A stretch of 64,000 bases of DNA, taken from Nannocystales bacterium. GTDB taxonomy: Bacteria; Myxococcota_A; Polyangia; Nannocystales; Nannocystaceae. The stretch is from contig JBOEGF010000008.1 of assembly GCA_050633305.1 (NCBI GenBank), positions 32,001 to 96,000 on the forward strand. The letters run 5' to 3'. A model generated the notes under the pieces. It ran no database searches. It was not told the DNA's origin and was given only the letters and a program-made list of their open reading frames with translations. A program made the translations under genes and the position numbers. Below are positions 1-33,199 of the stretch, one piece after another (the first letter of the stretch is position 1; each line of letters begins with the position of its first letter).

Positions 1-1812
1 GCACTCGGCGAGACGATCCAGCGAGCGTGGCCGGCCAAGCAACTGCGTGTCCGATCGGGCTCGAGCGGCACGGATACGCTGCAGGTCAAGGTCCGCAAGG
101 CGGAGCAGTGGTTTGCCGCCGATCTCAGCCTCCGCGTCGACGATGTCCTGGTCCTCGGATACGCCCAGCTACTTCGAGGCCGCGAGGGAGGCCAGCGCTA
201 CATCGAGCTGGGCAAGGATGAATACCTCGCGCTCACCCAGGAGATGACACGTCGCTTGGACGCGATGCAGGCGTTCGCTTCGGACCGCGACAACACCATC
301 GTCATGCACCCGGCCGCGGCGGAGTCCCTTGGCTTGACACAGGACACCCCGGGCGTGGAGCTGGACAAGGCGGCAAACGCACGCCTGGCCTCAATCCGCA
401 AAGCCCGAGCGCTACAGCCCAGGCTTCCGCGAACGTTTACCGGCACGCTGCGGGACTATCAGCGCGAGGGATTCCTCTGGCTGGCGCGACTGTGCGCGGC
501 GGGACTGGGCGCATGCCTGGCCGACGACATGGGCCTGGGCAAGACGGTGCAGACGATCGCGCTGCTGTGCTTGCGAAAGAAGGAAGGCCCTGCGCTCGTC
601 GTCTGCCCGACGTCGGTGGTCGCCAACTGGCAGGAGGAGTTCACCCGCTTTGCTCCGAAGCTGCGCGTGTCGACGCTGGGCACCACTGGCCGCCCCGAGA
701 CGATCGAAGGCCTGACTCGCGGCGACGTCCTGCTGATCAGCTATGGCCTGCTGGTGCGAGAGCAGGAGGCGCTCAGCGGGGTGGAGTTTGGCACGGTGGT
801 GTTCGACGAGGCGCATGCGCTCAAAACCCCCACATCCCAGCGGGCGAAGGCAGCATTTCGCCTCGATGCCAGGGCCCGGGTCACGCTCACCGGAACGCCT
901 GTCGAAAACCACCTCGGCGAGCTGTGGTCGGTCATGAATGCGAGCGTTCCGGGGCTGTTGGGATCCAAGCATCGCTTCGACGAGCGCCTGGGCCGCCCCG
1001 TGCTTCGCCACCACGCCGGAGCCCTCGACCGACTTCGTGCGATCCTCGATCCGTTCGTCCTCCGACGTCGGCGCTCGGAGGTCCTCACCGAGCTGCCCGA
1101 ACTCACCGAAGTCACCGTTCGTGTGCCCCCCACCGACGCGCAAGCGGCCTACTACGAGGTCCTGCGGAAGCGCGCGATGGAGACGCTCGAGGAAGCACGC
1201 AAGGACCCCACCAAGGCGCGGATCCGAGTGCTCGCCGAGATCACGCGGCTGCGCCAGGCCGCGATCGATCCACGCCTGCTGGACGAAGACCTCGCGCCCG
1301 CGGGTTCCAAGCTCGATCAAGCCTGCGAACGCGTCGCGGCGCTGCATGCCGACGGCCACCGCTGCCTGGTGTTCACGCAGTTTCTCGGCTGTATCCGCAG
1401 ACTCGACGAGCGGCTCTCCGACCTCGGCTTGGAGGTGCTTACCCTCGACGGCTCAACCCCGGCCCCCATCCGCAAGGCCCGCATCGACGCCTTCCAGCGC
1501 GGCGAAGCGGACGCCTTCGTCATGAGCCTCAAGGCCGGCGGCGTCGGCATCAACCTCACCGCTGCCCAATACGTGATCCACATGGACCCCTGGTGGAACC
1601 CCGCCGTGGAAGAGCAGGCCACCGCCCGCAGCCACCGCATGGGTCAGCGCGACCCGGTCACGGTGTACCGGTTGATCACCGAGGGAAGCATCGAAGAACA
1701 GATCCTCGATCTGCACGAACGCAAACGGGGGCTGGCGCAGGATCTGTTGGGTGGGATGGCGAACGCGAAGGCCCTCGACCTCGAGGCGCTTCGAGGGCTG
1801 CTGGAGGCATGA
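1..1812 (+). CDS. SNF2-family (SF2) helicase/ATPase, 5'-truncated by the window edge
   Basis: Frame is open from base 1. Motifs LRDYQ, LADDMGLGKT, DEAH, TGTP.EN, SLKAGGVGINL, DPWWNP, R.HRMGQ. Confidence 0.95.
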   Translation, partial: ALGETIQRAWPAKQLRVRSGSSGTDTLQVKVRKAEQWFAADLSLRVDDVLVLGYAQLLRGREGGQRYIELGKDEYLALTQEMTRRLDAMQAFASDRDNTIVMHPAAAESLGLTQDTPGVELDKAANARLASIRKARALQPRLPRTFTGTLRDYQREGFLWLARLCAAGLGACLADDMGLGKTVQTIALLCLRKKEGPALVVCPTSVVANWQEEFTRFAPKLRVSTLGTTGRPETIEGLTRGDVLLISYGLLVREQEALSGVEFGTVVFDEAHALKTPTSQRAKAAFRLDARARVTLTGTPVENHLGELWSVMNASVPGLLGSKHRFDERLGRPVLRHHAGALDRLRAILDPFVLRRRRSEVLTELPELTEVTVRVPPTDAQAAYYEVLRKRAMETLEEARKDPTKARIRVLAEITRLRQAAIDPRLLDEDLAPAGSKLDQACERVAALHADGHRCLVFTQFLGCIRRLDERLSDLGLEVLTLDGSTPAPIRKARIDAFQRGEADAFVMSLKAGGVGINLTAAQYVIHMDPWWNPAVEEQATARSHRMGQRDPVTVYRLITEGSIEEQILDLHERKRGLAQDLLGGMANAKALDLEALRGLLEA

Positions 1813-23035: not shown

Positions 23036-26000
23036 ATGGCCTTTCGCGACTGGTTAGTTCAAGGGGTACTCATCACCGGAGTTGTCGCATGCGGCAACGA
23101 GGGTGCAGTGTCCCCATCCGATGGTGGCACAAGCACGGGGGGCGAAACAGGAGGCCCTCCGCCAACACCGATCGGCTCGACCGGGGGCGAGACCGGGACG
23201 GTCGACGACTCGGAGGACGGGTCGACGACCGCACCCGACGCTGAAACCACAAGTGGCGCCGAAGACACGTCCCAAGGTGGTTCGACGGATGGAGACAGTA
23301 CCGGCCAGCAGTCCCCAGAATGCGGCAACGGTATCCTCGAGGACGGCGAAGAATGCGACGACGGACCCGGCAACGCCAATACCGCGGCGTGCAAAGAAGA
23401 CTGCACAGTCCAGTCTTGCCCGGATGGCTTCGTCGGCCCGGGGGAGGAATGCGACGACGGAGACGGCACCAACTGGAACGAGTGCACCAACACCTGCACG
23501 CTTCCTTTCTGCGGTGACCAGCTGACCTCAATCGGAGAGGAGTGTGACGACGGCAACACCGACGACGACGATGGATGCTTGTCGACGTGCGTCGACGCCA
23601 GTTGCGGTGACGGTTTCATCCACAGCGGGACCGAGGAGTGCGACGACGGCAACCTGATCGACACCGACAGCTGCCGGTCCGACTGCACCCAAGCGTTCTG
23701 TGGCGACAGCGTGATCTGGGAAGGCGTGGAGACCTGCGACGACGGCAACCTCTCCGACACCGACGCGTGCCCGACATCATGCGTCCCGGCATTCTGTGGC
23801 GACGCCTTCGTACAATCGGGCGTCGAGGCCTGTGATGACGGCAACCTGATCGACACGGACGCGTGCCTGGCGAGCTGCCAGACGGCCACCTGCGGAGACG
23901 GCGTGATCTGGGAGGGCACCGAGACCTGCGACGACATGAACCTCGCGGACGACGATGCCTGCCCATCGACGTGCGCCCCCGCGTTCTGCGGAGACGGGTT
24001 CATCTGGGCGGGGGTGGAGACCTGCGACGACGGGAACATCGACGACACCGACAGCTGCCCTACGTCCTGCAGCCCCGCATTTTGCGGCGACGGCTTCGTG
24101 GAGGCTGCCAACGAGGCCTGTGACGACGCGAATGCGGACAACACCGACGACTGCCTCGACGACTGCACGGTCGCCTCGTGTGGAGATGGGTTCGTTCAAC
24201 TCGGGGTCGAGGAGTGCGACGACGGCGGCATCATCGACGGCGACGGTTGCGAGAGCGACTGCACAATCACGCCAGACCCATGCGGTCCTCCCGGGCAAGT
24301 TCTGTTCGTCGACGACGACGCGACTGGGGCCAACGATGGCTCGTCTTGGGACGACGCGTACACCTCGGTGTTCTTCGCGTTGCTGGCCGCCGAGTCCAAC
24401 GACGAGCTCTGGATCGCCCAAGGGAACTACCACCCGATCGCAGCCAACGCGCCTGTGGCAAGCCTGACGACGTGCGTCGATGTGTACGGCGGCTTCCTCG
24501 GAACCGAGGCCGACGTCGACGACCGCCCCACGCCACTGGCACCGACGGTCTTCGACGGCGACTTCAACCTGGACGATGGTGCTGCGATGCTGGACGACAA
24601 CGCGTTCCATGTCATCGCCGCGACGTCGGTCACCAACGTATTGGTCGACGGTGTGATCGTGACCGGCGGACACGCCACCGGAGCAGGCGAGAGCAGCCGC
24701 GGAGGAGGGGCGATCGTCGCGGACTCCGACATCACCCTCGACAACACGACCTTCGTCGCAAACACCGCGACAGGACGTGGCGCCGGACTCTACGCCGACC
24801 AGTCCACCGTTGACGTCACGTTCTCAACGTTCGACTCGAACACCACCGATGCTGACGGAGGAGGCCTCTGTGGCGACACGGCGTCGGTCGTCGCGGTCGA
24901 CAACAGCACGTTCATCGAGAACAACGCTGCTCGCGGCGGTGGCATTGCGCTGAGTTCCGCGACACTCACGGTGACCGACTCGTTGTTCGAGGACAACACC
25001 GCATCGTCTACGAGTTCCTCAGCGGGAGGCGGCGCGCTCTATGCCGATTCAAGCTCCACGACGGTGGACCTCTCGACCTTCGTCGTGAACACGGCGCGCT
25101 ACGGGGGCGCGGTTCGGACCTCGAATGGGACGCTCGATATCTCCGACTCGGTGTTCGACGGGAACACGGCTTCATCGAACGGCGGAGCAATGTACACCCT
25201 CAGTGCCAGCACGACGAGCGCCACGGTCTTCGTCGACAACTCGTCGGAGAGCTTCGGTGGCGCGGTATTCGTCGCAGACGTGTTTGGAAGCTCGCCCTCG
25301 GCGACCTTCGATGCCTGCCAATTCGAGACAAACATCGCCGGGAGTCAGGGCGGCGCTGCCTACCTCGCGGGCGACCACACAACCCTGTTGGACTCCACGT
25401 TCAACGGAAATACAGCGAACACGGGCGGCGCCATCTACGGTGGGTCGGGCGCCGACTTTTTCATCGCGGACTCGAGCTTCAACGACAACGCCGCATCGAG
25501 CGGTGGCGCTCTGTATACAGCCCTGTCGACGGCCAATGCCGAAGTGCTCCACAGCAACTTCACCGGCAACAGTGCCTCCAGCCGCGGCGGTGCGATCTAC
25601 GACGGGATGAGCTCCACCCGCCGACTCACGGTCTCGGATTGTGAGTTCCGAGACAACACAGCCGTGCTCTCCGGCGGCGCGCTCCGCGTCGTCGCAGGAC
25701 GGTTTACGGTGCGCGACTGCGGGTTCTCGCAGAACACGGCCGGGACCGACGGCGGCGCGATCTCGGCGCGCGGGGAGACAAACTCGTTGATCGCCAGCAC
25801 GTCGTTCTACGCCAACAGTGCTTCCGGGACCGGTGGTGGCATCTTCCTGTCGTCCAACGGGGCCGAGCTTCTTCCGATTCGCAATGTTGCGATCTGGGGC
25901 AACGGCACGGACATGGAGGGCGAAGGCAACGCTGCGATCTCTTACACCTGTAGCGAGGAGTTCCTCAGCGTCGGTGCCGGAAACACCTTGTCACTCGCCG

Positions 26001-26191
26001 ACCCCTTCGTGGTCGGTGACGCCGGAGAACTCTTCCTCGACCAAGCTTCGGCTTGTGTCGACGGCGGAAGCAACGTCGCCGCGAACGCGGACTACGGGGC
26101 CGACGGCACGAACTGGATCCTGCTCACAACGGCACAATCCGGCATGCTCGACGCAACACCCGTTGATATGGGCAGGCACTACCTCCCCTGA
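23036..26191 (+). CDS. Surface lipoprotein: Cys-rich DUF4215-type repeats and a PMP-like beta-helix
   Basis: VVAC lipobox, S/T/G linker, 10 C(G/P)(D/N)...E.CDD repeats, many FxxN...GGA(I/L/V) repeats. Confidence 0.9.
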   Translation: MAFRDWLVQGVLITGVVACGNEGAVSPSDGGTSTGGETGGPPPTPIGSTGGETGTVDDSEDGSTTAPDAETTSGAEDTSQGGSTDGDSTGQQSPECGNGILEDGEECDDGPGNANTAACKEDCTVQSCPDGFVGPGEECDDGDGTNWNECTNTCTLPFCGDQLTSIGEECDDGNTDDDDGCLSTCVDASCGDGFIHSGTEECDDGNLIDTDSCRSDCTQAFCGDSVIWEGVETCDDGNLSDTDACPTSCVPAFCGDAFVQSGVEACDDGNLIDTDACLASCQTATCGDGVIWEGTETCDDMNLADDDACPSTCAPAFCGDGFIWAGVETCDDGNIDDTDSCPTSCSPAFCGDGFVEAANEACDDANADNTDDCLDDCTVASCGDGFVQLGVEECDDGGIIDGDGCESDCTITPDPCGPPGQVLFVDDDATGANDGSSWDDAYTSVFFALLAAESNDELWIAQGNYHPIAANAPVASLTTCVDVYGGFLGTEADVDDRPTPLAPTVFDGDFNLDDGAAMLDDNAFHVIAATSVTNVLVDGVIVTGGHATGAGESSRGGGAIVADSDITLDNTTFVANTATGRGAGLYADQSTVDVTFSTFDSNTTDADGGGLCGDTASVVAVDNSTFIENNAARGGGIALSSATLTVTDSLFEDNTASSTSSSAGGGALYADSSSTTVDLSTFVVNTARYGGAVRTSNGTLDISDSVFDGNTASSNGGAMYTLSASTTSATVFVDNSSESFGGAVFVADVFGSSPSATFDACQFETNIAGSQGGAAYLAGDHTTLLDSTFNGNTANTGGAIYGGSGADFFIADSSFNDNAASSGGALYTALSTANAEVLHSNFTGNSASSRGGAIYDGMSSTRRLTVSDCEFRDNTAVLSGGALRVVAGRFTVRDCGFSQNTAGTDGGAISARGETNSLIASTSFYANSASGTGGGIFLSSNGAELLPIRNVAIWGNGTDMEGEGNAAISYTCSEEFLSVGAGNTLSLADPFVVGDAGELFLDQASACVDGGSNVAANADYGADGTNWILLTTAQSGMLDATPVDMGRHYLP
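23321..24263 (+). repeat. Ten intragenic cysteine-rich repeats of about 32 aa
   Basis: Recurring CGDG.....E.CDDGN...D.C...C units. Confidence 0.9.
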
Positions 26192-26270: not shown

Positions 26271-29200
26271 CTACGGCGTCAGCGCACCGGCGTCTTCCTC
26301 AGGAGCCATTTCGGCGGGCGCCGCAGGCATCTCCATCAACGGCGAGCGTGTCCCCGCGATGGTGCCGTCCTTGTGCTTCACGGCAAACGCCTTGCCGTCA
26401 AACGTGATCGTGATGCGCGTGTAGGCCACAGGCCGGCTCATCGCCTCGCCCGTCTGTCGTACCGTGAGCTCGGGCAGCCCGGCCGCGGGTGCGGCCAGCG
26501 CGAACAGACCCGTATCACCGGCGATGATCGGGTCCCCCAGATGCCCCGCCGCCGTGGGATCCGCGTGGGTCAGGACGAGGTTTGCCGCCAAGTCCTCCCA
26601 AACCAGCAGCGTCCAGGTGGAAGGACCATCGAAGAGCTGCAGGCGTCGCAACTCTCGGGCGACGCTCTGCGCGGGGATATCGGCTGAATCAGTCGCCTGC
26701 TCGAGGATTCTGGCGAGGTAGGCGACAGCGTGGAGCCGCGCGAAACGCCGCGGATCGTTTGCACCCGGTCGGCCTTCGCCCGCGGCGATCTTCCGAAGCG
26801 TCCGCAAGGCCTCGTCGGTTCGGCCGGTCCCCGCGGCTGCCCGCGCAAGCCGAATGCCCGCCAGGGCATCGTCGGTCTGTAGCTCGACGAGGTCTTCGTA
26901 CTGCCGATACGCACCGTCGTACCAGCCGTGCCGCAGGAAGATGTCTCCGAGCAGTTTGCGGCTCGCCGCGCTGGTTGGGTCGAACTCGACGATCTCGGAG
27001 AACAGTCGCTGCGCTTCGTCGGTTTGTCCGTGCGCAACCATGATCTCCCCCAGCGATTGAGCCAACCCCGGGGTCATCAGCCCCTGCTCGCGCAGGCGAC
27101 GGCCACGCCCGACCGCTTGCTCGAGGCGGCCGCCTGCGACCAGCAACTCCAGCAACCGCAGCTCTCCTGCGGGGTCTCCCGGAGCCCGTGCGAGCGCGGC
27201 ACGGACCACACCGAGCTTATCGTCCAACGTAACCTCCAGGATTACCCGGCGGTCCACATCCGCCCAGTCGACGAGACTCCCAAACATCGCGCTGTCGACG
27301 GATGCGATCAGTGCGGGGTCGACCAAGCGACGCAGCAACGCCCGCGCGACGTAGCGAGCCGCGTCGGACTCGTCGTGGAAGTGGCTCAGCAACAGTTCGA
27401 TGTCGGCTTCACTCGCCGCGCTCGCCTGCAGGAGCCGTAGAAAGGTGCGCTGGTCCTTCCACCCCCGAATCTCGCAGCTTCCCGCCGCCGCTTCGTAGCT
27501 CTGCAGCGACTGCGTCATGGTCACAGCGCTTCCCAGACGTTTGCGCCACAGGATGCGTCGATGGGCGAGTCCCCGAGCCGAAGCGTCGCTGCACGGGAGC
27601 TTCCGGCCGCGCCGGACCGACGAGACGATTCGGCGACGCTCTCGCTGTGCCCTGGGCTGCACTTCGGCGATCTTGTCGATACGGGAGTCCTCCGTCACGC
27701 CTCCCCTCTTGCCACCTCCGGCGCCCCCGCCTCCCATGAGAGGATCGTCGCCGCTGCCAAGGTTGACCTTCTTCTTGCGAGTCTTGGTCGCTGGCGAAGG
27801 CGCCTCGAGCTTCGCCTTCGCCGCAAACTCCCGAGATTCCTCCTCCATCACCTTTCCGTCCGCTGCGCGTTGCGGCTCGGCGTCCACACTCGAAGCATCG
27901 ACACTCGCGACCGCAGCGTCTCCAGGGCTGCTCGCAACGTTCGAGACCTCCTCGTTCTTCGCGCCCTCCACCGCTTTTGCAGCCACGGCCTCGTCAGCGG
28001 ACGATCCGGAATCGCACCCAAACGGTGCACTGAAGAACCCTACAAGGATTCGCTCAGGGAGACTGGCGTCGTCCGCCAATCCTCGCTTGGTCGGGACCCG
28101 GTCGCGCAGGTTTGCGGTCAGCCGAACCCCGCCGATCTGACGCTGCCTTCGGACGATGCCAGCACTTGCGTAAGCCCGCTCGCTCTCCAGGGCCAAGATC
28201 GAAGTGTAAGGACTCATCAGCCCATACTCGAGGCCCAGCGACAACACCTTGCCGCGTACCGCTTCGGGGCCCCGGCTGTCCCCGAGCAGGCGCTCGATGT
28301 ACGCCGCGGCCCACAGTCGGGGCACGACCTGCTCCAGCACGCCCTTCGTTCGCTCGAGCTTGTGCACCTTCTCGAACGGCTCGCCCCCCAGCCGTCCACG
28401 AACTGTGACCTCGTCGGGAAGGTCGTAGTGCGTGCGTGCGAGGAGCACGAGTTCCTGGCCCCGAGAGAGTTTTCCGGTGGTGTTGACGAACACGTCGTCC
28501 AAGCCCTCTCCCAGCTCGACCTCGAGGTCGGTGATCGTGGGGGTCTTGAGAGCACCCGACAGCTCGAGTGCGCGGACGATCGCTTGCTCGGGCGACTGCA
28601 CACGCAGGTGAGTTCCACCGCCGATCCGCGCGAGGGCGTGAAGCAGAGCGTCGTCCACCTCCTGACCCACACCGACGGTGAACAGTCTCGCCCGAGACCC
28701 GGTCATGCTTCGGCGGAGTCGCTCGGCCAACGCATCGCCGGCCCGCTCCCCGCTCGTGGCCATCCCGTCCCCGACATAGACGACCGCGGGTTGATCGAGC
28801 CCGTGCACCCGCTCCAGCGCCTCCTCGAAGATCGCGCCGAGGTCCGTCGCACCGCCGGTCCCGTGCTCCGCAAGCCGCTCTAGAGCCGCCGAAACCGTAT
28901 CGGGGCTAGCCTTGGCAAGCCCCGCCTCGGGGTAGAGCACCTCCGCTCGGACATCCGCGCTGACGACCGCAAACTCGTCCCCTGCACTGAGACTGCGCAA
29001 GAACGCCTCCGCCACCGCAAGCCGGGTTTGATACTCCGCGGGGTCGCCGGCCGCCGACGTATCGACGACCACGACAACTTGCCCTTGCGGGGTCGGGACC
29101 TCGTCGAAGTCGAGTTCGGGGCTGTAACGAACCATCGCGTAGCGAGCTTGGTCGCCTCCGGGCTCGAGCATCGACAGACGCAGCGGTGGACGCTCGGTGC

Positions 29201-30503
29201 CCGGCCGCTTCTTGAGTTCGAGCTGGAAGTCCGCGCGTGGCGTGTATCCGCTTCGCCGCATGGTCACTCGTTTTCCGTCTTCGTCGACACGGGCTTCGGC
29301 GAGCGTCGCGATGTCGTAGTCGTCTGCGAGCTTGCCAAGCTCGACCGAGAGCGCGAAGTCCTCGATGCTTGCGGTCCGCTTCTTGCCCGGCCCTGCCAAC
29401 GGGTAGCTGTATCGAAGCTTGCCATCGGACTCGGTGAGGAGTTGTTGATAGCGCACCACGATGCGTCGGCTGCCCGACGCGGGAACAGGGAAGATGCGGG
29501 CGCGAACCGTGTGCTCGTCGATCCACTCCAACAACGCGGGGTCGTTCGCCTTCTGCACGGTCTCTTCGTAGGTGCGTGCCGCCTTCTTTCGCTCGACCAC
29601 CTCCCCCTCGACGAGCTGTCCATTCGTCTCCAGCGCAAAGCTGACCAGCTGGCTCCCGTGAGGAATGGTGAACCAGTAGTAGCCTTCGACATCTCGGCTC
29701 GAGGGGTTGAAGAAGACTTGCTCAACCTTGGTCTCCGCCAACTCGTCGCGCATCACCACGTTGACCGACTGCCGCTGAATCTGAAGAGGCAGCGCTTCGG
29801 ACCCCGGCGGCGCGGACCGGTCGACGGCATACAAGCTGCCCGACCCTGCCGAGCCGCCAGCCCCCAGACCACTGCCGTCGCCCATTCCCCCGGTCCAGTC
29901 GTCCCAGAACGCGACGGCCTCCACCTGCGGCGCAGCGCTAGCGCTGAGCGTGACCCGCTCACCCGCCGCCGCCTCGGTCCGGCCTCCGGCGTTGCTCACG
30001 ATGGCCAAGCCATCCGCCACGTAGACCCGTGCCTCACCGTCACGAACCTCCAAGCTCGCGCCACCGTCGGAAAGAGCCACCGCAGCGTCCCCTACCTTGT
30101 GGGACACCGGCGCCTGGCCGCGTTCTAGGCCCGGGGCATCCAACCATGCGCGGCCCGCAACGAGGACCAATCCTTCGTGCAGCTCCACGGTCGTGCCCTC
30201 GTCGAGGTACACACGTGCGCCATCGCTGAGTCGGATCAGCGCACGCGCACCACCGGCGGTGCGAAGACGAGCGCCCTGCGGCAGTGGTGTGCCCGACAAC
30301 AGCCGACGAGCCTCGCCGTCAGTCTCGATGACGACCTCGCCAGCCGCGAGTTCGAGATTCGCCGCGAGCTGCTCGGTGGCGAGCGGAGGAGGGGTTTCCC
30401 AGGGTTTGAGGACCGCCAACGCAACGCCTCCGCCGATGAGCGCGACGGCTGCGATGCCCTGAAGGATCTTGTGACGAACGGTAGAGCGGGTCATGGGGTG
30501 CAT
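26271..30503 (-). CDS. FecR-like, VIT, vWA and TPR multidomain protein
   Basis: N-terminal TM, RT..G.RA...L.DG FecR-like region, VEQVFFNP...EG.Y.F..P VIT, VVVVDTS vWA, C-terminal TPRs. Confidence 0.88.
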   Translation of the reverse strand: MHPMTRSTVRHKILQGIAAVALIGGGVALAVLKPWETPPPLATEQLAANLELAAGEVVIETDGEARRLLSGTPLPQGARLRTAGGARALIRLSDGARVYLDEGTTVELHEGLVLVAGRAWLDAPGLERGQAPVSHKVGDAAVALSDGGASLEVRDGEARVYVADGLAIVSNAGGRTEAAAGERVTLSASAAPQVEAVAFWDDWTGGMGDGSGLGAGGSAGSGSLYAVDRSAPPGSEALPLQIQRQSVNVVMRDELAETKVEQVFFNPSSRDVEGYYWFTIPHGSQLVSFALETNGQLVEGEVVERKKAARTYEETVQKANDPALLEWIDEHTVRARIFPVPASGSRRIVVRYQQLLTESDGKLRYSYPLAGPGKKRTASIEDFALSVELGKLADDYDIATLAEARVDEDGKRVTMRRSGYTPRADFQLELKKRPGTERPPLRLSMLEPGGDQARYAMVRYSPELDFDEVPTPQGQVVVVVDTSAAGDPAEYQTRLAVAEAFLRSLSAGDEFAVVSADVRAEVLYPEAGLAKASPDTVSAALERLAEHGTGGATDLGAIFEEALERVHGLDQPAVVYVGDGMATSGERAGDALAERLRRSMTGSRARLFTVGVGQEVDDALLHALARIGGGTHLRVQSPEQAIVRALELSGALKTPTITDLEVELGEGLDDVFVNTTGKLSRGQELVLLARTHYDLPDEVTVRGRLGGEPFEKVHKLERTKGVLEQVVPRLWAAAYIERLLGDSRGPEAVRGKVLSLGLEYGLMSPYTSILALESERAYASAGIVRRQRQIGGVRLTANLRDRVPTKRGLADDASLPERILVGFFSAPFGCDSGSSADEAVAAKAVEGAKNEEVSNVASSPGDAAVASVDASSVDAEPQRAADGKVMEEESREFAAKAKLEAPSPATKTRKKKVNLGSGDDPLMGGGGAGGGKRGGVTEDSRIDKIAEVQPRAQRERRRIVSSVRRGRKLPCSDASARGLAHRRILWRKRLGSAVTMTQSLQSYEAAAGSCEIRGWKDQRTFLRLLQASAASEADIELLLSHFHDESDAARYVARALLRRLVDPALIASVDSAMFGSLVDWADVDRRVILEVTLDDKLGVVRAALARAPGDPAGELRLLELLVAGGRLEQAVGRGRRLREQGLMTPGLAQSLGEIMVAHGQTDEAQRLFSEIVEFDPTSAASRKLLGDIFLRHGWYDGAYRQYEDLVELQTDDALAGIRLARAAAGTGRTDEALRTLRKIAAGEGRPGANDPRRFARLHAVAYLARILEQATDSADIPAQSVARELRRLQLFDGPSTWTLLVWEDLAANLVLTHADPTAAGHLGDPIIAGDTGLFALAAPAAGLPELTVRQTGEAMSRPVAYTRITITFDGKAFAVKHKDGTIAGTRSPLMEMPAAPAEMAPEEDAGALTP

Positions 30504-30735: not shown

Positions 30736-31482
30736 TCACGGCCTTCGCTGCTCCGCGCTCAACACCGTGCGCTCCAACGTCTTGCGGTGGGCCTTGCCGC
30801 GAACGCTCCAGTACGGCTTGATGCGCAGCCGGTCCCGAGACACCCCACGCGCGAGCCACACCTCCCGAAGGGCCACGACCGCCGTCGCTTCCCCCGAAAG
30901 CCACACCACCCCGGGCCCATCGGGGACCGAAGCCGTTCGGGCGTGCTCGACCAACGCTTCGCCAGACGCTCTTCGGCGCGAAACGGCGACCAGGTCGAGG
31001 TGTTTGACGGCGTCTGTCTCATCCTCGTGAGTCTCGATTGCACCGAACGTGGGGGCGTTGGGCGGGAGCGCGGACAAGAGTGCTTCCGCCAGTCCAATCG
31101 CGGTTTCGTCCCCGTAGAACGCGGCCCAAGGCTCAGATCCTCGTGGGGCAGGAACACTGGACCCGGGGCCCAAGAAGTGAACGGCATTCCCGGGCTGAAG
31201 TCCGTTCACCCACCGGGATGCGGCGCTGTCGCCCTGCGCGAACACGACGATGTCCATCTCGCCGACCGAGGCATCAATGCGCGCAGGCGTGTAGCTGCGC
31301 ATCTCGCCCTCCCCGACATGCACCTTGATCTTGCAACCCGGAGTGAACGGCACCCCCGCGCAGCGTTCAGAATGCAGCTCGACCCGGAGGACCGACGGCG
31401 AGAGCCTCCGAACGCCAGTGACTTGGGCTTCGTGTCCAAGTGCCCGCACTCCGAGGCTCTGGATGCTCTTTGAAAATGCCAT
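30736..31482 (-). CDS. Siderophore-interacting protein (FAD-binding, ViuB-like)
   Basis: RSYT, GP, GDETA, WLSGE, KPYW..G. Confidence 0.88.
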   Translation of the reverse strand: MAFSKSIQSLGVRALGHEAQVTGVRRLSPSVLRVELHSERCAGVPFTPGCKIKVHVGEGEMRSYTPARIDASVGEMDIVVFAQGDSAASRWVNGLQPGNAVHFLGPGSSVPAPRGSEPWAAFYGDETAIGLAEALLSALPPNAPTFGAIETHEDETDAVKHLDLVAVSRRRASGEALVEHARTASVPDGPGVVWLSGEATAVVALREVWLARGVSRDRLRIKPYWSVRGKAHRKTLERTVLSAEQRRP

Positions 31483-31602
31483 TCAACTTCACATGTGACC
31501 CGCCGAAGGCTGATCCGCAACCCCAGTGCACAAAACTTCACGTGCGCGCGCGGCGAAACCTCCAGTCGCTCCGGGCGCCGCTTCGTGACAAGCTCCGCCG
31601 TC

Positions 31603-32616
31603 ATGCGACACGTTCTCAGCATGGCGGTTCTCGGCGTCGTCGGACTCATCGCGACCCCAGCGTGGGCTGGTTGACCCGGCTGAACGAACCCCAACCTCCC
31701 GGGCGGAGGTGCCACGCTCAATCAGAAACCCCTCGACACCGGTCGGCTGCGCCTCGGCGCGGTCATGCTGGGCTCGTGGGCGCGTTCCACCCACGACGGT
31801 CGTAGCGGCGACGGCCTCCCAAACTCAGAACACCGTATCGGCGCGGGGTGGGCCCAGTGGAATCTCTCGGCCCAGCTAGGGATCGCAGAACGGTTTGCAT
31901 TCGACGTCATGCTTCCTCTGCGACTGACCACTCTCAACGTGGCCTCGCTCGGTCCTGGAAACCGCTCGTTGGACGTTGGCGACACCATCCATCGCGACCA
32001 AACCGTGTTCTCCGCCGGCGACATGCTGCTCTCCACCCGATGGGGGCTGGTCCGCAACGAGGATGTCCGAGGCTGGACGCTCGACCTCAACCTCGGTGTC
32101 AACCTCCCGACCGGTCGCGTTCGTCCAGACCCTTTTCATCCCGACAACGAGCGCGGCGTTGAGCAGCTCTCTCACGGATCGGGCTCCGTCGACCCCTCCT
32201 ACGGGCTGGAGTCCTACTACAACGCCGGGAAGTGGGGTCTGACGACCTTCTCCACAGCCCGGGTCCCCGTGGCAACCAATCGGTACGGCAACCGGGCTGC
32301 GCGGGTCCTGCAAGGGGGCGTCGGGGTTGCCTCCGGGTTCGGACTGGTGCGGTGGCGCTTCCTGTTCCAGCAGGAGGTGTTCGCTGCTGGGCCCGTTCGG
32401 TGGGGAGAGACCGAGGCACCCAGCACGGGCCGAGTCTCGCTCATCGCCTCCGCGGGAGCGTTCTTTCAGCCCCGGCCCCGCCTCGGTCTGCACACCAAGG
32501 TGTCCGCGCCCTACTACACGTTTGCGCGTGATGGGGAATTCCTCTGGCCCTTCGTCGTCTCGGTCGGCATCAACTACACGTTCCACTTGGTGCCCGAAGA
32601 AAAGCACCACCACTGA
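31603..32616 (+). CDS. Putative selenoprotein (UPGU): outer-membrane beta-barrel transporter-like protein, 337 aa
   Basis: ATG 31603 is in frame with ORF 31765. Signal peptide ends in AWA. In-frame TGA at 31672 and 31681. Barrel motifs GD, LPTG, GSGSVD, C-terminal GINYTF and HHH. Confidence 0.8.
31694..31710 (+). promoter_or_regulatory. Candidate bacterial SECIS hairpin
   Basis: ACCTCC-CGGGC-GGAGGT, 6-bp stem with G-rich loop, after a 10-nt spacer from the second TGA. Confidence 0.6.
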
Positions 32617-32743: not shown

Positions 32744-33199
32744 ATGCGACAGATCAAGCGCGAAGACTGGGAGAGCCACAAAAACTACCCGCACCAAGTC
32801 CTGCTGCTCGGTTCGCACGAGAACTTCCGCCGGATCAGCAGCCTTCTCGTTCACCGAGCCCAACACTCGGGCGAGGTCTCAGGGATCGAGTCCCTGTACC
32901 GGCGCTGGAAGTCTGCGATGCGCGGCCACGAGTACTACGAGGAACACAAGCTCTACCCGTACCTCGCAGAGCGTTGGGGCGTGTCGTTTCGCGACGCAGA
33001 GGCCGGCCATGAGGCCCTACGAGAGCGAGACCGCGATGTGCACTCGGCATTCCGCGACACCACCTCCTCAACCGCACTAACCGATGCGATGCACGGCCAT
33101 CACAACGTCCTCATCGAGCACCTTCAGTACGAGGAAGACTTGGTCATCCCGCTTCTTCTCGAACTCCCCGCAGAGGAGTTTCGTCGCACGTTCGGCTAG
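32744..33199 (+). CDS. Hemerythrin-like (HHE) domain protein
   Basis: H...H.YYEE..LYP...H...HL.YEE..V.P pattern. Confidence 0.85.
   Translation: MRQIKREDWESHKNYPHQVLLLGSHENFRRISSLLVHRAQHSGEVSGIESLYRRWKSAMRGHEYYEEHKLYPYLAERWGVSFRDAEAGHEALRERDRDVHSAFRDTTSSTALTDAMHGHHNVLIEHLQYEEDLVIPLLLELPAEEFRRTFG

Follow-up and report, generated by a model that had tools for sequence, protein, structure and literature searches.

The DNA analysed here, called the window throughout, is a stretch of 64,000 nucleotides from a Nannocystales bacterium (assembly GCA_050633305.1, contig JBOEGF010000008.1, positions 32,001 to 96,000). Its forward strand carries a gene that was annotated as an open reading frame (ORF) of 283 amino acids starting at ATG 31765. 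As direct reading of the window sequence revealed, this table-11 ORF (31765-32616) shares its frame with a further ATG at 31603, and the frame from that ATG holds exactly two internal stops, both TGA, the next stop being the TGA at 32614-32616. Judged from its sequence, the gene very probably encodes a genuine, exported outer-membrane barrel protein with two selenocysteine (Sec) residues. The features of the gene are as follows (bSECIS, bacterial selenocysteine insertion sequence; AF2, AlphaFold2).

31603..32616, forward strand: complete coding sequence of the predicted selenoprotein, 337 codons, two internal UGA codons read as Sec, stop TGA at 32614-32616
31603..31668, forward strand: signal-peptide-like leader of 22 amino acids (MRHVLSMAVLGVVGLIATPAWA) with a putative signal peptidase I site AWA/G
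31672..31674, forward strand: UGA-1, predicted Sec24, codon 24 and residue 2 of the predicted mature protein
31681..31683, forward strand: UGA-2, predicted Sec27, codon 27 and residue 5 of the predicted mature protein
31694..31710, forward strand: bSECIS-type hairpin ACCUCC-CGGGC-GGAGGU with a 6-bp stem, inside the codons for N-L-P-G-G-G
31744..32586, forward strand: 12-strand outer-membrane beta-barrel domain, residues 48-328, from the AF2 model
32605..32613, forward strand: C-terminal His3 tail (HHH), 3' of the last barrel strand

With TGA written as U, the read-through product of 337 residues is MRHVLSMAVLGVVGLIATPAWA-G-U-P-G-U-TNPNLPGGG...EEKHHH, and it contains no Cys and 11 His. A preliminary description of this DNA had proposed the start at ATG 31603, the TGAs at 31672 and 31681 in CxxC-type spacing, the lack of Cys and the HHH end, and all of these were borne out by re-reading. 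It had also claimed that the protein is exported, and a signal-peptide-like segment does stand directly before the TGAs, as judged by eye from its n-region, its hydrophobic core and the AWA/G site. AF2 predicted a helix at residues 2-15 of this leader, and in all aligned relatives a hydrophobic leader ending in A-x-A or similar lies 1-2 residues ahead of the first U or C. Because the HHH tail is downstream of the last barrel strand, it should be on the periplasmic side.

The terminal TGA differs from the two internal ones. The closest ortholog (L013/L026, 87% identity) ends with TAG in the very column of the window's terminal TGA, thus 32614-32616 is a true stop; it has no hairpin downstream of it, and the orthologs are colinear with the window protein across residues 1-337. 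The neighbouring genes of the window translate normally with table 11, hence TGA is not a general sense codon in this genome. Assembly error had been named as a possible source of the TGAs. Contigs of a public DNA run span 31565-31715 with zero letter differences (about 32024-32351 is uncovered), which is agreement but not independent support, since that run may be the source sample. The double-TGA arrangement is far beyond chance, and the TGAs, their spacing and the leader recur in related loci.

Conservation of the two TGA codons in relatives

Stop-tolerant whole-genome searching covered 60 relatives; 11 genomes, the window's own among them, proved to have the gene, and the full-length matches carry two TGAs. 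Ten of 12 related loci have UxxU right behind the hydrophobic leader (33-87% identity), while the other two, which are more distant, have CxxU. A scan of a collection of 185,579 species genomes gave 59 distinct loci, 58 with UxxU and one with CxxU; since the peptide NP[NT]LP[GV]GG served as the seed, the counts are biased towards Sec forms. According to the record titles, the carriers belong to the Myxococcota (Polyangia, Nannocystaceae, Kofleriaceae, Archangium, Polyangium and Byssovorax), with the addition of one metagenome-assembled genome labelled Bdellovibrionales. The cultured strains Polyangium fumosum DSM 14668 (L081), Polyangium jinanense SDU13 (L084) and Paraliomyxa miuraensis SMH-27-4 (L030) are among them. 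Meanwhile, an unbiased phylum-wide sample was covered by profile search, and the family was present in 60 of its 401 genomes. The 56 matches that cover the N-terminus contain two TGAs in 42 cases, three in one, one in three and none in ten. The 28 loci read from this sample comprise 20 UxxU, one CxxU and seven CxxC forms, the Sec form being commoner than the Cys form. The counts over relatives given here and below are not mutually independent.

In-frame conservation of the leader, of the TGA pair and of the NP.LP motif behind it extends down to 23% identity among the relatives (23-87%). Database proteins give a different picture of the gene: all 13 near relatives are entries of 198-310 amino acids that lack the N-terminus and are unnamed or called 'hypothetical protein', which agrees with the earlier claim that annotation pipelines truncate it. 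An exhaustive phmmer search returned 213 clusters at E<=0.001, most of which start at query positions of about 45-90. Fourteen representatives do reach the N-terminus, and 12 of these have CxxC, the remaining two having the second Cys only ('QATC' forms).

Columns 2 and 5 of the family alignment are invariant U/C. The UGA-1 column contains U in most relatives, C in the CxxU and CxxC forms and a residue other than Cys in the two 'QATC' forms, whereas the UGA-2 column contains U or C in all full-length members observed. CxxU occurs in two distinct loci overall. No UxxC form was present among the relatives examined, thus the second position is universal while the first is U, C or missing. Cys is the sole residue that substitutes TGA at these columns; the homolog comparison suggested in the preliminary description thus finds UxxU, CxxU or CxxC exactly there.

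Selenocysteine machinery and the SECIS hairpin

The window's genome (11.0 Mb, 65.9% G+C, 90 contigs) encodes the complete Sec machinery that the earlier description had named as a check. ARAGORN reported one tRNA-SeC (selC) on contig C28, with the anticodon tca. In family searches, the genome yielded selB above the cut-off (265 bits), selA (397 bits) and selD (366 bits, C4:133193-134122, minus strand), the last with a single in-frame TGA of its own. The selD gene appears to be a selenoprotein gene itself, its TGA standing in the expected ...AQAAGU-ASKL... context and having two hairpins behind it, of which the second has a GGUCU loop. Across relatives, selA exceeded the cut-off in 5/5 UxxU-form genomes and was found in 0/5 CxxC-form genomes (completeness 84-95%), a small sample of related genomes.

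The hairpin at 31694-31710 starts 10 nt past UGA-2 (10-11 nt), and its loop CGGGC starts 16 nt past UGA-2 and 25 nt past UGA-1; its minimum free energy (MFE) is -9.3 kcal/mol. The published bSECIS model sets out the loop, the stem, a G in the loop, a spacing of 16-37 nt and the MFE (PMC13188914). The window hairpin agrees with this model on all these counts and for both UGAs (16 and 25 nt).

From UGA-1 onwards the alignment of relatives is free of gaps, and the sequences fall into two hairpin registers, namely the window's class with the peptide NLPGGG and a larger class with NLPVGG and a GGUC loop. In a set of 46 sequences, 258/258 cells of the larger class are paired. One pair of the hairpin takes all four Watson-Crick forms in this set (GC 20, CG 17, AU 3, UA 3) with no mismatch, and a second pair covaries as CG 39 / UA 4. 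The observed covariation score was reached by 0/500 column shuffles, and slid registers fell to 48-66% paired. The covarying pair joins the third base of a Leu codon (CUN) with the third base of a Gly codon (GGN). As both are synonymous sites, the covariation is not explicable by selection on the protein. In the window's own class, CUC-CCG-GGY-GGA is kept in 15/15 rows and GGU in 14/15. Additional register variants in the phylum sample retain a hairpin of 5-7 bp. Over 73 distinct Sec-form loci the hairpin is kept with a median of -11.7 kcal/mol (one row, L055, was measured at the wrong site), and 43/73 loops are GGUC. The same region of seven Cys forms gave a median of -6.5 kcal/mol, ranging from -2.4 to -14.6 in this small sample.

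Only the local hairpin, not a fold of the whole region, matters: when 31660-31770 was folded as a whole, it was no more stable than shuffles (z -0.14). An Rfam scan of 31500-31900 gave four chance matches (E 4-8) and no match to a bacterial SECIS family, and by eye no second hairpin for UGA-1 is conserved in the alignment of relatives. A promoter and terminator scan returned nothing useful.

Barrel fold, attached modules and neighbouring genes

Modelled by AF2 with an alignment of 46 mature sequences, the protein forms a 12-strand barrel with a mean predicted local distance difference test score (pLDDT) of 89.2 and a predicted template modelling score (pTM) of 0.87; an earlier AF2 model from 11 sequences had reached a pLDDT of 75.5. 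The best structural match by VIA-align was the COG4313 channel Pput2725 (4rl8_C) with Z 24.4 and a root-mean-square deviation of 2.7 A over 251/268 residues. FapF (5o65_B) followed with Z 23.9 and was also among the top Foldseek matches (E 3e-12), while autotransporter barrels scored Z of about 19 by VIA-align. Foldseek concurs with this fold assignment. The model range 12..305 aligns to 1..268 of the 4RL8 chain, the Sec pair being another ten residues closer to the N-terminal end.

At the sequence level, the Pfam model PF13557 (Phenol_MetA_deg) is matched by 12 of 46 family members at E<=0.01 and also by the database protein P0065 (26.4 bits, cut-off 22). When a natural Cys-form member was searched against a protein atlas, PF13557 clusters came up as leads. 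Some relatives reach this model and the window protein does not, thus it belongs to a divergent branch of the superfamily rather than being a model-level member. A PDB sequence search with the 46-member profile gave only a chance histone match (E 0.79) and no match to 4RL8. The COG4313-like channel supposed in the preliminary description is nevertheless upheld by the fold (4RL8, Z 24.4) and by the PF13557 matches of the relatives. Besides the U/C pair and N-P, the invariant features of the family are H64, H77 and H130 (precursor numbering), D140 and a long Gly/Pro-rich loop. From the strand order of the model, the three histidines would sit at the outer ends of strands 1, 2 and 4.

In many members of the NLPVGG class (L054, L058-L063, L069-L084 and others), the first external loop bears a further conserved pair of Cys, e.g. 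HLAECPDLGPAC. The N-terminal pair of these members is Sec, and the window protein is without the loop pair.

The barrel is frequently joined to other modules in relatives. Among 30 long forms scanned, a C-terminal Thioredoxin domain was found in 27, an additional Cupredoxin_1 domain (PF13473) in seven and a heavy-metal-associated (HMA) domain in one. Where the barrel stands alone, a thioredoxin-domain gene lies directly upstream on the same strand in 11/30 loci, three of which also have HMA, and this gene often overlaps the start of the barrel gene (translationally coupled). Stand-alone cupredoxin genes are downstream of the barrel in two loci. Altogether, at least 52 of 85 distinct loci, among them 7/7 CxxC forms, have a strict thioredoxin motif either next to the barrel or fused to it. 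These partner proteins are lipoproteins that combine WCxPC with an HMA-like DCxxCG site or else with two Cys/His-rich motifs. Their HMA parts scored best against CopZ models, below the cut-offs, and also matched NF041115 and MerP below the cut-offs. His-rich C-terminal tails occur in many relatives, e.g. HEHGHEHEDEHDHHH and HGHEDEDEHGHGHGH. Metal- or metalloid-related neighbours seen in single loci are a P-type ATPase, ArsB, a chromate transporter and a MopE-like protein. A complex prediction for the Cys-form barrel L109 and its upstream thioredoxin lipoprotein scored 0.00 and gave no verdict either way.

Several further observations were made at individual loci. Genes for partner lipoproteins are directly upstream at L029, L034 (3210-3902), L036, L043, L056, L068 and L099-L112. 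The duplicated partner motif, located ahead of the thioredoxin domain, is roughly C-x-H-x-V-P-x-x-V-C-x-x-C-x-P ... W-C-x-x-H-x-V-P-E-S-Q-C-x-x-C-H-P-D-L, and Pfam and NCBIfam scans of these lipoproteins name their thioredoxin and HMA parts only. At L037 (5241-8924, forward strand), the barrel gene is followed by a gene for a 1228-aa protein with seven MopE-type putative copper-binding motifs. The database protein P0122 (442 aa) is a Lys/Asn/Ile-rich Cys-form member with a C-terminal HMA domain instead of thioredoxin; its composition and this fusion suggest that the family may extend beyond high-GC myxobacteria. In the copy at L020/L024 (G012:C523), a frame change and a stretch of masked or unknown letters interrupt the middle of the gene, possibly an assembly gap or a broken copy.

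In the window itself, the barrel gene is flanked by a divergent gene for a siderophore-interacting (SIP/FAD) ferric reductase (30736-31482, reverse strand) and by a hemerythrin-domain gene (32744-33199, forward strand); neither is kept beside the barrel in the relatives examined. Further away lie two very large genes, for a 1051-aa protein with DUF4215 and Chlamydia-PMP repeats (23036-26191, forward strand) and for a 1410-aa protein with FecR, VIT, VWA and TPR domains (26271-30503, reverse strand).

Interpretation, rival explanations and significance

The explanation that we favour unites a double-Sec gene, a single SECIS, a barrel product and a mechanism, and we regard the exported double-Sec barrel itself as highly likely. 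Direct support exists for the structure of the gene, the pairing of Sec with Cys, the covariation of the SECIS, the Sec machinery, the fold and the linkage with domains and genes, while the placement of the N-terminus in the lumen, the role in metal or redox chemistry and the nature of the substrate are inferred. Translation would begin at ATG 31603, and SelB and tRNA-Sec would decode the UGA codons 24 and 27 as selenocysteine, both insertions being directed by the single hairpin at 31694-31710. Export and cleavage of the leader would yield a 12-strand barrel of the COG4313 / Phenol_MetA_deg / FapF fold with the mature N-terminus G-U-P-G-U. The ~14 N-terminal residues of Pput2725 are folded into the lumen on the periplasmic side, according to the accessible part of PMC4493636. 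The segment of about 25 residues ahead of strand 1 may do likewise, as in that solved COG4313 channel, and the Sec pair on it, a diselenide/diselenol that can be reduced, would bind a copper-type soft metal or act as the gate of the channel.

Reduction of the pair would be maintained in most relatives by thioredoxin, either as a fused domain or as a periplasmic thioredoxin-like lipoprotein, and HMA, cupredoxin-like or His-rich modules often accompany it. Since both ends of a 12-strand barrel are periplasmic, this compartment could bring the Sec pair together with the lipoprotein partner and with whatever the C-terminus bears (thioredoxin, cupredoxin or His tail). The domain fusions in relatives favour a reducible, metal-associated site. 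We tentatively propose that the Sec pair, kept reduced by the thioredoxin module in the oxidising periplasm, is a site for the binding or hand-over of soft (copper-type) metal that also controls the channel.

Two rival explanations deny the selenoprotein altogether. If the annotated 283-aa ORF from ATG 31765 were the real gene, the TGAs would be plain stops and the upstream part a leader ORF or untranslated. Gene callers chose this form, 13/13 database homologs begin past the TGAs, and most phmmer representatives start at query positions of about 45-90 likewise. However, an outer-membrane barrel would then be left without any export signal, and the in-frame conservation of the leader, both TGAs and NP.LP down to 23% identity, the Cys in place of TGA where selA was not found and the covarying hairpin all argue against it; we consider it extremely improbable. 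Hardly more credible is read-through of UGA by other means than Sec, be it through a local recoding signal or through near-cognate suppression (Trp/Cys/Arg). In principle, unspecific read-through could be promoted by the hairpin, and the selenium in the product is itself a prediction from sequence. But Cys alone replaces TGA, the genome has the full Sec machinery, and selA accompanies UxxU in 5/5 genomes versus CxxC in 0/5. Moreover, the hairpin fits the bSECIS model including a G in the first two loop positions, 43/73 loops are GGUC, and the genome's own selD has a hairpin with a GGUCU loop past its UGA.

Other rivals accept the selenoprotein or leave its chemistry aside and concern the function of the barrel. 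A FapF-like secretion channel for an unfolded peptide, with the N-terminal segment as plug, is suggested by the structural closeness of FapF (Z 23.9 versus 24.4 for the COG4313 channel) and its place among the top Foldseek matches. Yet no Pfam families of fap-like or substrate genes occur among the window neighbours or the 116 neighbour ORFs of 30 loci, while 12/46 members match PF13557 and the atlas search with a Cys-form member led to PF13557 clusters, so this reading is very unlikely. The main rival to the metal role takes the selenoprotein as real and the Sec pair as purely redox, being either a diselenide gate on a channel for small molecules, hydrophobic (as proposed for COG4313 channels) or other, or the outer-membrane terminus at which a thioredoxin relay reduces external oxidants or oxyanions of chalcogens. 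Both the CxxC/UxxU spacing and the constancy of the thioredoxin partner are typical of redox systems. In 2/30 loci the barrel gene adjoins a gene of the class-V aminotransferase type (cysteine desulfurase/selenocysteine lyase-like), and TerB, ArsB and chromate transporters are near the gene in single loci. The closest fold family is moreover tied to the uptake of hydrophobic molecules in the accessible part of PMC4493636. Against a purely redox role stand the three independent types of metal-binding module attached (HMA, cupredoxin-like and His-rich tails), the HMA parts that score best against CopZ models (below cut-offs), and the invariant H64, H77 and H130 predicted at barrel strand ends. 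We rate it as rather unlikely.

A number of observations weigh against the favoured explanation and have to be set beside it. The base of the hairpin is 19 nt from UGA-1. For fdhF of E. coli, the optimum distance between UGA and hairpin is reportedly about 11 nt, and the efficiency of the first Sec insertion is thus uncertain. Hairpin conservation in the window's class is partly confounded with conservation of the peptide NLPGGG, and two of the seven Cys forms fold a stable but different hairpin in the same region. The window protein has no meaningful Pfam or NCBIfam match (NCBIfam release 20, E<=1). The first 20 mature residues were modelled at a pLDDT of 61-64 only, which makes the lumen placement tentative. 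The public sequencing runs matching the window are one DNA run and no RNA run. In the window's clade (the window, L026 and L027), the barrel gene has no thioredoxin neighbour, and searching the window's genome for an HMA-thioredoxin partner gave only generic thioredoxin-level matches (best E 4.5e-6). This clade has also lost HxH and the first His of HH, which are near-invariant elsewhere, while it retains the U pair, H64, H77, H130 and the His3 tail. The partner-based mechanism may therefore not transfer fully to the window protein.

Known systems resemble this family in part. The COG4313 channel Pput2725 of Pseudomonas putida F1 (4RL8) is likewise a 12-strand barrel whose N-terminal segment precedes strand 1. 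The accessible part of PMC4493636, however, describes no Sec or Cys pair for COG4313 channels and proposes uptake of hydrophobic substrates, whereas the family described here comes with coupled thioredoxin, HMA and cupredoxin modules. The FapF amyloid secretion channel (5O65) also shares the 12-strand barrel fold, but it is without Sec, and no fap-like neighbours were found at the window gene or at 30 related loci. FapF, a product of the fap operon, has a helical plug and, in the periplasm, a coiled coil. In the selenoproteins of NF041115 (UxxU HMA-type) and of the MerT-like C/SxxU type, which the 2026 catalogue (PMC13188914) contains, UxxU or xxU similarly replaces a metal-binding CxxC; their folds are unrelated, with Sec in a soluble ferredoxin-like HMA domain or in an inner-membrane helix.

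Sec-containing outer-membrane beta-barrels are known as the TonB-dependent receptor FCYXU type (NF049945) and the GSU2204 MtrB/PioB-family barrel (NF041027) (PMC13188914). In contrast to the present protein, they have a single Sec, are much larger and carry their motifs at other positions, and their models match neither the window protein nor four further members. ExtI of Geobacter is a putative outer-membrane porin tied to selenium biology (selenite/tellurite reduction). The preliminary description had called ExtI a selenoprotein, and this has to be corrected: in the accessible part of PMC5877670, the selenoprotein proposed for the ext cluster is the cytochrome ExtKL and not the porin ExtI.

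The 2026 catalogue of 119 prokaryotic selenoprotein families contains no COG4313/FapF-like barrel (PMC13188914, Table 1). UxxU occurs in only three families of that table, whose outer-membrane entries are the TonB-dependent receptor type and the MtrB/PioB-type barrel. NCBIfam release 20 gave no match to the barrel part of four further members, and in open-access literature and bioRxiv no paper on the family and none joining COG4313 with selenocysteine was found. The family is unnamed by any Pfam or NCBIfam model, widespread in myxobacteria and routinely cut short by gene callers.

The finding adds a new selenoprotein family in which selenocysteine resides in a COG4313-type outer-membrane channel, a combination absent from the family libraries, catalogue and literature searched. 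It also exposes an annotation error, since the database entries retrieved (283-310 aa, 'hypothetical protein') are all without the signal peptide and the active-site motif. For SECIS biology, it presents one short hairpin serving two UGAs 9 nt apart, with textbook covariation at synonymous sites, which constrains the peptide to NLPGGG / NLPVGG. The link to thioredoxin, HMA, cupredoxin-like and His-rich modules is a testable lead on soft-metal and redox handling at the outer membrane, and cultured carriers exist (Polyangium and Paraliomyxa). More speculatively, myxobacteria might possess an outer-membrane device not recognised before, made of a small 12-strand channel with a Sec-pair plug inserted in its lumen and of a dedicated metal-binding thioredoxin lipoprotein that serves it from the periplasm; the Sec pair would act as a selenium valve or hand-over point for copper-type metals or chalcogen species.

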